Assembly (NCBI GenBank): GCA_036274515.1
Contig: DASUFQ010000078.1
Span: forward strand, 2,450 to 66,449
From: Gemmatimonadales bacterium
Lineage (GTDB): Bacteria; Gemmatimonadota; Gemmatimonadetes; Gemmatimonadales; GWC2-71-9
Direction of reading: 5' to 3'
DNA: 64,000 nt
In this document: positions 26,183-27,345 of the stretch, one piece after another
Position numbering within the stretch: the stretch's first letter is position 1
Layout: the number at the start of each line of letters is the position of its first letter
Notes under the pieces: model-generated
The model's database searches: none
Told to the model about the DNA's origin: nothing
The model's input: only the letters and a program-made list of their open reading frames with translations
Program-made: the position numbers and the translations under genes

Positions 26183-27345
26183 GCTTCGCCTTCGACCTCC
26201 ACGCCACCGAGGGCGAGGCCCGCGCCGGTACCCTCCACACCCCGCACGGCGAGGTCGCCACCCCGGCGTTCATGCCGGTGGGCACCTACGGCACCGTCCG
26301 CGGTCTCCACCCCGACGAGGTGGAGCGCACCGGCGCCCAGGTCATGCTGGGCAACACCTACCACCTCCACCTCCGGCCCGGCGAGGAGGTCGTCGAGTCG
26401 CTCGGCGGGCTGCACGCCTTTTCGCACTGGAACCGGCCGATGCTGACTGACAGCGGCGGCTTCCAGGTCTTCTCGCTCGAGGGGCTCCGCACCATCGCGG
26501 AAGAGGGGGTCGCCTTCCAGAGCCACGTCGACGGCAGCCACCGGACCATCACCCCCGAGAAGTCGGTGGAGATCCAGTGGGCCCTCGGCGCCGATATCGC
26601 GATGCAGTTCGACCACGTGGTGCCGGGCGGCGCCGACCACACCCTGGCCCGCGAGGGGATGGAACGCTCGCTCCGGTGGCTCGACCGCTGCAAGGCGAGG
26701 CACGCGGAGCTCGTCCTAGCCCCCCGGCCCCCTCTCCACCACGTGGAGAAGGGGGGGAGTTCCCAAGCGTTGTGGCCCATTGTCCAGGGCGGCACCCACA
26801 CCGACCTCCGGAAGGCCTCCCTCGAGGGCATCCTGGAGCGCGGACCGTGGACCGGCATCGCCATTGGCGGCCTGTCGGTGGGAGAACCGAAGCCGGTGAT
26901 GCACCGGGTGCTGGAGGAACTGGCCCCCGCCCTGCCCCGGGGGGCCCCGCGTTATCTTATGGGTGTGGGGTTCCCGCAGGACCTGCTGGAGGGGATCGCG
27001 CGGGGCGTCGATCTCTTCGACTGCGTGGCGCCGACGCGGAACGGCCGGCACGGCTCGGCCTGGGTCTCGACGGGGCGCGTCAACGTGCGCTCCGCCCTGC
27101 ACCGGCTTTCGAAGGAGCCGCTCGACCCCGAGTGCGACTGCACCACCTGCGGAACGTTCAGCCGCGGGTACCTGCGGCACCTGTTCGTGGCGGAGGAAAT
27201 CCTTGGCCTCCGGCTGGTGTCGATCCACAATGTCCGGTTCCTGGTCCGGCTGGGTGAGCTCGCGCGCGCCCACATCATGGCCGGGACCTTCGAAGGCTGG
27301 AGCCGCGAGTGGCTCCGCCGCTACCACCTGAAAGGCGACTCCTGA
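26170..27345 (+). CDS. tgt: tRNA-guanine transglycosylase
   Basis: [22 protein letters not shown], and the zinc site CDCTTC...H. It contains an insertion of about 11 codons (see repeat 26728-26755). Confidence 0.95.
26728..26755 (+). repeat. in-frame palindromic element (CCCCCTCTCCAC-cac-GTGGAGA(A)GGGGG)
   Basis: 12-bp stem with one bulged A and a 3-nt loop. It encodes [10 protein letters not shown] inside tgt, between the RW...R helix and the conserved (A)L(F/W)xIxQGG motif. Confidence 0.7.

Follow-up and report, generated by a model that had tools for sequence, protein, structure and literature searches.

The 64,000-nucleotide stretch of DNA analysed in this study (hereafter the window; contig DASUFQ010000078.1 of assembly GCA_036274515.1, positions 2,450 to 66,449 of the forward strand) originates from a Gemmatimonadales bacterium and has a G+C content of about 72%. 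It contains tgt, the gene for queuine tRNA-ribosyltransferase (open reading frame [ORF] 26170–27345, plus strand, 391 amino acids; Pfam TGT, PF01702, E=1.7e-143), whose product is 100% identical to the Tgt protein of a Gemmatimonadales metagenome-assembled genome. Because the public protein (P0001) consists of 388 amino acids, the true start of tgt is probably located at position 26179. This gene harbors a short palindromic repeat which is translated in frame. A second copy lies in the gene of an NtrX-like sigma-54-dependent response regulator (ORF 179–1585, plus strand), in the linker that joins the AAA+ domain to the C-terminal helix-turn-helix (HTH) domain.

The hairpin in tgt (26728–26755, plus strand) has 12 bp and consists of the left arm CCCCCTCTCCAC (26728–26739), the loop cac (26740–26742) and the right arm GTGGAGA-A-GGGGG (26743–26755) with one bulged A at position 26750, just as a preliminary description of this DNA had reported. 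The same description took the 28-nt palindrome for the whole element and missed a conserved 5' tail, CTCACCCCC-TGT. When the sequence was matched to the unit consensus and to tgt orthologues, a repeat unit of about 47 bp was obtained, which occupies positions 26713–26759 (codons V182–S197) and has the C-rich strand as its sense strand. The tail, which is the complement of a third strand, and the second loop (26716–26727) are degenerate in this copy (CTAGCCCCC-CGG), and the allowed purine-motif triplets are lost, as read from the sequence. The degenerate tail and the bulge therefore mark the tgt copy as a decaying one. Its DNA fold (-11.8 kcal/mol) is only slightly better than that of shuffled sequences (z -1.6 and -1.8), and the hairpin energy was not used as evidence.

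Tgt proteins of E. coli and Zymomonas had been expected to be about 10–13 residues shorter in this region, and gaps of 14 residues in an E. coli-type Tgt structure (10fa) and of 11 residues in the structure of Z. mobilis Tgt were indeed found exactly opposite the insert. In an AlphaFold2 model of Tgt (mean predicted local distance difference test [pLDDT] 85.5) the insert is a coil (residues 184–199) between a long helix (157–183) and a strand (200–202); its pLDDT is 77/69 in comparison to 96–97 in the flanking segments. The strand ends with the conserved QGG motif, the glutamine of which we take to correspond to the substrate-binding Gln203 of Z. mobilis TGT. Judging from TIM-barrel geometry, the insert would be situated at the N-terminal, non-catalytic end of the barrel strand.

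The copy in the regulator gene is better preserved. Its hairpin (1386–1412; CCCCCTCTCCGG-gaa-CCGGAGAGGGGG) possesses a perfect 12-bp stem and a 3-nt loop, is in frame and is read as PLSPSPGTGEGG, in a codon phase different from that of the tgt copy. It belongs to an intact triplex-motif (TM) unit (1371–1416, plus strand) with the sequence GTC-CTCACCCCC-TGT-CCCCCTCTCC-GGGAACC-GGAGAGGGGG-GACG, which is read as PHPLSPSPGTGEGGR and folds better than shuffled sequences (z -3.6 and -3.8). The third strand on the minus strand, GGGGGTGAG, runs antiparallel to GGAGAGGGGG and, as read from the sequence, allows no triplets other than G·G, T·A and A·A, in the order G·G (five times), T·A, G·G, A·A, G·G. 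A degenerate second tail, GAGGGAGGTG, follows on the 3' side (1417–1426, plus strand), and the extended fold pairs positions 1376–1426. With tail-like sequence on both sides, this copy is possibly the remnant of an inverted doublet. The core of the preliminary description, an in-frame palindromic repeat in a tolerant loop of Tgt with a sister copy of the same element in another codon phase, was right.

Within the window, the enrichment of the motif is weak: the 10-mer arm occurs three times where 0.77 occurrences are expected, and 4 of 100 shuffled sequences equal this number. The case against chance consequently rests on comparisons outside the window. Seven orthologous tgt genes revealed at the DNA level the unit CTCACCCCC-TGT-CCCCCTCTCC-(7 nt)-GGAGAGGGGG-(G/A)AC, which is intact in the loci L003, L004, L005 and L007. 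A metagenome scan with the 22-mer CTCACCCCCTGTCCCCCTCTCC yielded at least 120 contigs, mostly with 65–72% G+C, and 156 units were found in these; 155 copies gave the consensus GTC-CTCACCCCC-TGT-CCCCCTCTCC-loop-GGAGAGGGGG-AACG with the extension AACG(A). The stems of the 156 units are conserved, more than 25 loop types occur among the contigs listed, and many of the units are paired head to head in doublets whose members are separated by 15, 22–24 or 53 bp. For a scan across phyla, one genome per species was searched with the pattern CCCCTCTCC-N3-9-GGAGAGGGG. The matches listed include Planctomycetota, Chloroflexota, Bacteroidota, Cyanobacteria, Acidobacteria, Actinobacteria, Alpha-, Beta- and Gammaproteobacteria and one Nomurabacteria genome. 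Among these matches, 125 of 141 usable hairpins carry a third-strand tail (CTCACCC-type on the 5' side or GGGTGAG-type on the 3' side), compared to about 6% at random positions. Thus, the same 22–40 nt are found again in orthologues of tgt, on at least 120 contigs from metagenomes and in several phyla, and chance is excluded by this family identity. The two copies in the window belong to a family of many dispersed copies in which the stems are conserved and the loops vary and, owing to the conserved 5' tail, to a triplex-type motif and not to a plain palindrome.

Such a motif is known. Holder et al. 2015 (PMC4666352) described a G/C-rich intrastrand triplex motif, which had earlier been named BoxC and PIT element (Bergler 1992; Hoyne and Maher 2000, as cited in PMC4666352). 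The E. coli form, TMECO, has the structure CCCTCTCCC-loop-GGGAGAGGG-TTA/CCG-GGGTGAGGG and is present in strain MG1655 in 23 copies, all of them intergenic; no transposase, integrase or other mobility function was linked to it, and TMECO loci are more rearranged across E. coli strains than control loci (PMC4666352). Single-stranded TMECO DNA forms a stable class II purine triplex in vitro (PMC4666352). The units described here share with BoxC/PIT/TMECO the core (CCCTCTCC / GGAGAGGG / GGGTGAGG), the order of C-rich arm, loop, G-rich arm, 3-nt spacer and third G-rich strand, the central triplets T·A, G·G and A·A, and dispersed copies including inverted doublets at loci that are unstable among relatives. 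They differ by the additional conserved flanks GTC... and ...AACG and by G-runs of 5+2 instead of 3+3. Moreover, the E. coli copies are reported to be intergenic only and without a linked mobility gene, whereas about 12% of the copies reside in genes here and pairs of them bracket genes for DUF559 proteins. The published strict pattern, CCCTCNCCC-N3-6-GGGNGAGGG-N3-GGGNGAGGG (PMC4666352), is not matched by the regulator unit at 1371–1416 (minus strand, CCCCCTCTCC-GGTTCCC-GGAGAGGGGG-ACA-GGGGGTGAG) because its G-runs are 5+2 and not 3+3; it is therefore a variant of the broader G/C-rich triplex-motif class. By inspection, only the triplets G·G:C, A·A:T and T·A:T, antiparallel to the purine arm, occur in the regulator copy and in the orthologous copies of L003, L005, L007 and L248, and the tgt copy of the window with its degenerate tail departs from this rule. 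Judged by their sequence and architecture, the window elements are a variant of the BoxC/PIT/TMECO class and not a new family. The statement of the preliminary description that in-frame palindromic insertions were not known from a GC-rich lineage may hold for coding copies of this family, for which no such report was found in a literature search of incomplete coverage.

From these data it is most probable (about 85%) that the tgt palindrome represents an in-frame and partly decayed copy of the dispersed G/C-rich intrastrand-triplex repeat (BoxC/PIT/TMECO), which behaves like REP/REPIN sequences (REP, repetitive extragenic palindromic) and is carried by Tgt as a passenger without evident function.

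The distribution of the copies relative to genes was estimated with a heuristic coding test, which used open frames and the GC3/GC2 periodicity (G+C at third and second codon positions) on both flanks. Among the 156 metagenomic units, which come from high-GC, Gemmatimonadales-like bacteria, 75 were non-coding, 63 lay beside a single gene and 18 (12%) were located in frame in ORFs, so that together with both window copies a restriction to intergenic regions does not apply to this family. In a control, six of the seven known tgt copies as well as the regulator copy were called coding, and the tgt copy of L007 was recognized on one flank only. Bacterial genomes are about 85–90% coding, and a portion of 12% in-gene copies therefore means a strong depletion from genes. 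Nine of ten tested host ORFs of in-frame copies contain Pfam domains. The hosts comprise a DnaE-type polymerase, where HHH_6 contains the element, a MiaB-like methylthiotransferase with the element in the linker from UPF0004 to Radical_SAM, a UvrD-like helicase carrying two copies, a BlaR1-M56/HEAT protein carrying a doublet, and furthermore an M28 peptidase, a patatin, a hydantoinase B, a FAD-binding enzyme and a DUF2779 protein. The surviving in-gene copies are confined to tolerant positions, namely loops and inter-domain linkers. Five reading frames of the unit are used (LTPCPPLxxGEG, PHPLSPSPxxGEG, SPPVPLSxxERG, PLSxxERGTGGE and SPSPxGRGGQGVR), and the sixth contains TGA. That members of this class live in frame as translated sequences in GC-rich bacteria is believed to be new.

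The preliminary description had predicted a lineage-specific indel in tgt. An in-frame, lineage-specific insertion of about the predicted length is present; it is, however, not a clean one-off event, since the segment between HxEL and QxLWPI varies from 4 to 50 residues in 120 Tgt orthologues of Gemmatimonadota, and the shortest of these lack the segment. Element-encoded peptides occur in 8 of the 120 orthologues and in two frames, with P0034 (PHPLTPSPASGEGE) showing a different frame. LPRFPASP-type peptides are found in 15 orthologues, in L006 as an in-frame (CTTCCCCG)x3 tandem repeat, and PLPRGPAAPP-type peptides in seven; (CCCCGCGG)x3 is present in L250 and L178. These 8-nt tandem repeats were observed in frame as exactly three units (24 nt) in L006 (tgt, 3193–4401), L250 (regulator, 10001–11389) and L178 (at about 1104, minus strand), and (CCCCGCGG)x3, encoding PLPRGPAAPP, is common to Tgt, the regulator and an unrelated ORF. 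The pattern suggests a microsatellite-like expansion that is filtered by the reading frame.

The linker of the regulator is similarly variable. Among orthologues of 80–85% identity the element occurs in two frames and in either orientation, and in orthologues of about 70% identity it is missing. A canonical copy, CCCCCTCTCCAC-CAT-GTGGAGAGGGGG-ACA-GGGGGTGAGG, is present in the regulator P0134/L248. Because the regulator of L249 retains a remnant left arm, the difference in orientation could also derive from an ancestral inverted doublet followed by differential loss. Both the loop of Tgt and the linker of the regulator are hot spots with a hypervariable length, a behaviour which we believe to be new. 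In two further regulators (P0143 and P0144, 419 and 425 amino acids) the protein is cut off just after the element and the HTH is lost, and in a Tgt encoded on a 448-kb contig (P0032) about 25 residues directly after the variable segment are out of frame before the frame is restored. Either the reading frame has truly shifted at the hot spot in these cases, or the repeat was assembled wrongly.

The element and its host genes have evolved discordantly. Arms and tail are 91–100% identical between tgt orthologues whose synonymous third positions are only 56–65% identical, and a conservation of the element beyond synonymous sites is likewise believed to be new. Two loop subtypes occur in tgt (ACCATGT, read as HHVERG, and GGCAAGC, read as RQAERG), and they are scattered on the Tgt tree: the loops of the closest pair, L001 and L004 (97% amino acid identity, 78% synonymous identity), differ, and distant pairs share identical loops. 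Repeated insertion, copy replacement or conversion, recombination between lineages, or selection on the DNA are possible causes. A single ancestral insertion into tgt with subsequent vertical descent was judged insufficient in view of the discordance in frame, orientation and loop. Slippage is a likely cause of the length variation around the element. The 'no insert' allele of L002 (tgt, 10001–11146), CCCCACCACCCCGTCTCCGCAAGCG/CTCTGG, looks like the left half of the element fused to the QA codons. It is plausibly a deletion remnant (CCCCGTCTCCG-CAAGCG vs. CCCCCTCTCCGGCAAGCG), and it fits a slippage deletion because CAAGCG occurs both in the loop and as the Gln-Ala codons.

The following course of events is proposed. 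In single-stranded DNA the third G-rich strand of the unit, which is separated by a 3-nt spacer from the hairpin of C-rich arm, small loop and G-rich arm, can fold back on this hairpin. The family in Gemmatimonadales behaves like REP/REPIN sequences, with mostly intergenic copies, many head-to-head doublets and some pairs bracketing DUF559 genes. Copies in genes survive only where 12–16 additional residues are harmless and only in the five stop-free frames, and the copy in Tgt would be such a passenger, encoding a coil on the side of the TIM barrel that faces away from the catalytic end. The non-B-DNA potential of the motif and the nearby pyrimidine-rich 8-nt tandem repeats may make the site prone to slippage, deletion and copy replacement, which would explain the length hypervariability among orthologues. 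Copies might arise by nuclease-triggered repair, by gene conversion or by another route.

Several observations weigh against this reading. The triplex was not detected in double-stranded DNA or in vivo (Holder et al., PMC4666352), so that an instability driven by triplex formation is hypothetical. The 64-kb window contains only two copies, and outside the two genes none was found in about 140 kb of the orthologous tgt and regulator loci; the family is not abundant in these genomes. That both window copies are coding is unexpected, since only about 12% of all copies are; this portion is a heuristic estimate, to which the 63 copies beside a single gene could not be allotted. Neither a target-site duplication, which together with terminal inverted repeats characterizes MITEs, nor a clean empty site was found at tgt and the regulator, where the sites are too variable; conservation at the flanks of the unit is element-internal only (GTC and AACG), and the tgt, regulator and ycjD loci offered no clean pair of filled and empty sites. 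In addition, the conservation of the arms may reflect selection on a functional DNA or RNA structure and not copy replacement, and the discordance of the loop types could likewise be explained by recombination between lineages.

An undescribed family of selfish palindromic elements specific to this GC-rich lineage is an unlikely explanation. It takes its appeal from the Rickettsia palindromic elements (RPEs; Ogata et al. 2000, as presented in PMC10969869), which are in-frame insertions of palindromic repeats into various unrelated housekeeping genes, at sites where the fold of the protein tolerates them. The copies described here likewise lie in loops and linkers of housekeeping proteins, as a coil between helix and strand in Tgt and in linkers of the regulator and of the MiaB-like protein. 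As a phenomenon, i.e. in-frame repeats tolerated in loops, the parallel to RPEs drawn in the preliminary description is valid; in size and composition the elements are unrelated. RPEs measure about 150 bp (about 100–150 bp per unit), are AT-rich, occur only in Rickettsia and are read in a single frame that encodes a conserved peptide, whereas the TM unit measures about 47 bp, is GC-rich, is read in five frames, lies mostly between genes and belongs to a class found in many phyla. The idea of an undescribed family is largely refuted by the fact that core and architecture have already been published as BoxC/PIT/TMECO.

It is equally improbable that the hairpin is kept for a function of its host, either as an mRNA structure that influences translation or processing in the queA-tgt-yajC operon or as a peptide modifying Tgt. 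The arms are far more conserved than the synonymous sites of the same gene, and the 3' end of the element is fixed three codons from QxLWPI in most orthologues, as a host function would lead one to expect. The same DNA, however, occurs in unrelated genes, in five frames, in both orientations and mostly between genes, and therefore neither a peptide nor a tgt-specific RNA role fits. Furthermore, many close orthologues lack the element, the window copy is decaying, and a scan of positions 26500–27000 against Rfam (E≤10) gave only noise and no match. PIT elements are reported in PMC4666352, with reference to Maher and colleagues, to be without promoter or terminator activity. An origin in place by chance, slippage or template switching in a proline- and glycine-rich low-complexity loop, for which the weak window-only statistics and the in-frame 8-nt x3 tandem repeats in the same loop of orthologues could be cited, is the least probable of all and is refuted for the element itself by an identity over 22–40 nt, including the asymmetric tail and the flanks (GTC... 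and ...AACG), with hundreds of copies elsewhere.

The repeat also resembles REP/REPIN-RAYT systems. Both have short palindromes with an asymmetric conserved tail, inverted doublets and a mostly extragenic distribution; in both, inverted copies flank a small gene of single genomic context, and the motif varies with the lineage of the flanked gene. The difference lies in this gene, which does not encode a Y1 transposase of the IS200/IS605 type. The flanked ORFs belong to PF04480 (DUF559) and encode a PD-(D/E)XK (Vsr/EDxHD-like) nuclease that is not known to act on the repeats.

This association became apparent from several inverted motif pairs spaced 433–465 bp apart, the inner segments of which are homologous between loci and encode proteins of about 120 amino acids. 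Six of six such proteins were identified as DUF559 (E 1e-25 to 1e-30). When a local hidden Markov model for DUF559 was run over all fetched loci, five loci from the scan across phyla contained a DUF559 gene (Gemmataceae, a betaproteobacterium, Cytophagales, Beijerinckiaceae and Hymenobacter), and all five genes have motif hairpins on both sides at distances of 4–115 bp. Ten DUF559 genes were detected in metagenomic loci, eight with motifs on both sides and two with motifs on one side. No DUF559 gene was detected by this model in the window and in 203 kb of tgt and regulator loci. The cassette is composed of a motif with its tail outward, about 90–95 bp, the ORF, about 11 bp and an inverted motif, again with its tail outward. 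Bracketed genes are located in L147 (241–772), L154 (100–632), L170 (10247–10783), L238 (1340–1875), L260 (2390–2892) and L269 (2446–2952) and also in L008, L021, L036, L045 and L060; in L260 and L269 the inverted repeats are perfect over about 45 bp. Arrays of tandem half-units (G-rich arm plus third strand, period about 32 nt) were observed 3' of the right motif in L260 (2893–3004) and L269 (2953–3130), and the contigs end there. DUF559 homologues are mostly found on contigs of about 1 kb, as expected if assemblies break at these repeats.

A sample chosen without reference to the motif was obtained by tblastn on plasmids and comprised seven independent DUF559 genes. Three of these, two from Synechocystis and one from Pseudanabaena galeata, are bracketed by canonical motifs. 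Three others are accompanied by variant units of the C5/G5/G5 type (L252, L255 and L258), which retain the design of C-run, loop, G-run, spacer and G-run: the gene of Pseudanabaena ABRG5-3 has perfect inverted repeats of 40 nt (TCCCCCAGAATTGGGGGATTTAGGGGGC) on both sides, that of Picosynechococcus PCC 7002 is bracketed by CCCCAAATTGGGGGGTTAGGGG-type repeats, and in Azospirillum a variant doublet lies only upstream of the gene. The remaining gene, from Sinorhizobium, is accompanied by no more than a palindromic pair, located on one side. In the plasmid of P. galeata (NZ_CP112876.1, 152556–153858; L257) the DUF559 domain and the flanking motif doublets lie inside an annotated 4.9-kb ORF ('DUF559 domain-containing protein'), which means either that the cassette is read through in frame or that the annotation is an artefact.

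In E. coli K-12, the DUF559 gene is ycjD (1351407–1351760, minus strand, NC_000913.3; locus 1351204–1351760, L251). A degenerate motif hairpin overlaps its stop codon (C-terminus ...RSPSP*), and the canonical TMECO no. 9 is located 168 bp downstream. BoxC was reportedly first described beside envM/fabI, the neighbour gene of ycjD. Of 5426 complete E. coli genomes, 3375 contain ycjD. In the examined genomes without ycjD (O157:H7, APEC O78:H4) the homology ends about 40 nt before the motif, and different genes lie beyond the breakpoint, so that no clean empty site was found at this locus; a TetR/RND efflux cluster follows fabI instead, for example in O157:H7. Presence of ycjD and the number of motifs in E. 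coli showed no simple correlation (O157:H7 strains 10–11 motifs, APEC O78:H4 23, B2 strains 1–2; Table S1 of Holder et al., PMC4666352). Two identical DUF559 proteins, found on nine and six contigs, have one genomic context each. The gene therefore looks single-copy, like RAYTs and not like insertion sequences, and there is no evidence of multi-copy transposition.

DUF559 proteins belong to the Vsr/EDxHD fold of nucleases, as does a homing endonuclease of a group I intron (PMC3424549; PMC9403480). The EDxHD homing endonucleases (I-Bth0305I) and Vsr provide a precedent for selfish use of this fold and for nicking at mismatches; those enzymes reside in introns or inteins or are paired with a methyltransferase, whereas the DUF559 genes described here are free-standing between triplex-type repeats. 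The DUF559 protein VsrA of Caulobacter is responsible for a DNA-damage (SOS) response when the cognate methylation is missing, and the authors of that study propose that it causes double-strand breaks. In a screen for programmed inversions, DUF559 genes were enriched among the predicted targets (odds ratio 14), which is expected since they lie between inverted repeats. No paper linking DUF559 or ycjD to BoxC/PIT motifs was found in a literature search of incomplete coverage. The bracketing was seen in Planctomycetota, Bacteroidota, Alpha- and Betaproteobacteria, Cyanobacteria and metagenomic contigs and is believed to be new.

The association of motif and DUF559 is well supported; a causal role of the nuclease in copying would go one step further. 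Tentatively, and with somewhat less than even odds, BoxC/PIT/triplex motifs may be the cognate repeats of DUF559 endonucleases (YcjD-like, Vsr/EDxHD fold) in a pan-bacterial system resembling REP-RAYT. The bracketing pairs would then belong to the nuclease gene, solo units and doublets would be its non-autonomous offspring, and repair or conversion triggered by the nuclease would disperse and homogenize the copies, among them those that come to lie in frame in protein loops like that of Tgt.

Further repeats are present in the vicinity of the regulator gene and elsewhere in the window. The intergenic region 3' of the regulator (1591–1797) begins with an 8-nt tandem repeat, (CGGCCAGA) x10.9 (1591–1677), and contains purine-rich 8- and 23-nt repeats at 1700–1797 with GGGGGAGAGG pieces resembling the G-rich arm of the motif. 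Heptamer tandem repeats were observed at 97–139, 4308–4331, 9669–9695 and 11689–11712; the heptamers are AGGACCG, CTCAGTC (twice) and its complement ACTGAGG, so that the same heptamer occurs at three places.

For the biology of this repeat family, the findings mean that BoxC/triplex-motif repeats, once treated as strictly intergenic, can be translated passengers in essential genes. These passengers create length-hypervariable loops in enzymes that are highly conserved otherwise, for example Tgt, a DnaE-type polymerase, a UvrD-like helicase and a MiaB-like enzyme, and in-gene copies are a source of protein indel variation as well as of annotation and assembly errors in GC-rich soil bacteria. 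An element which is more conserved than the synonymous sites of its host and whose subtypes are discordant with the host phylogeny would imply active copying or conversion and not passive decay. If the proposed role of DUF559 is true, a repeat family that has been without a mobility or maintenance agent since 1992 would obtain one, and DUF559 would obtain a function. With bracketing in at least five phyla and motif variants that track the nuclease lineage, the two questions of what spreads BoxC/PIT elements and what YcjD/DUF559 does would be joined into one testable hypothesis.

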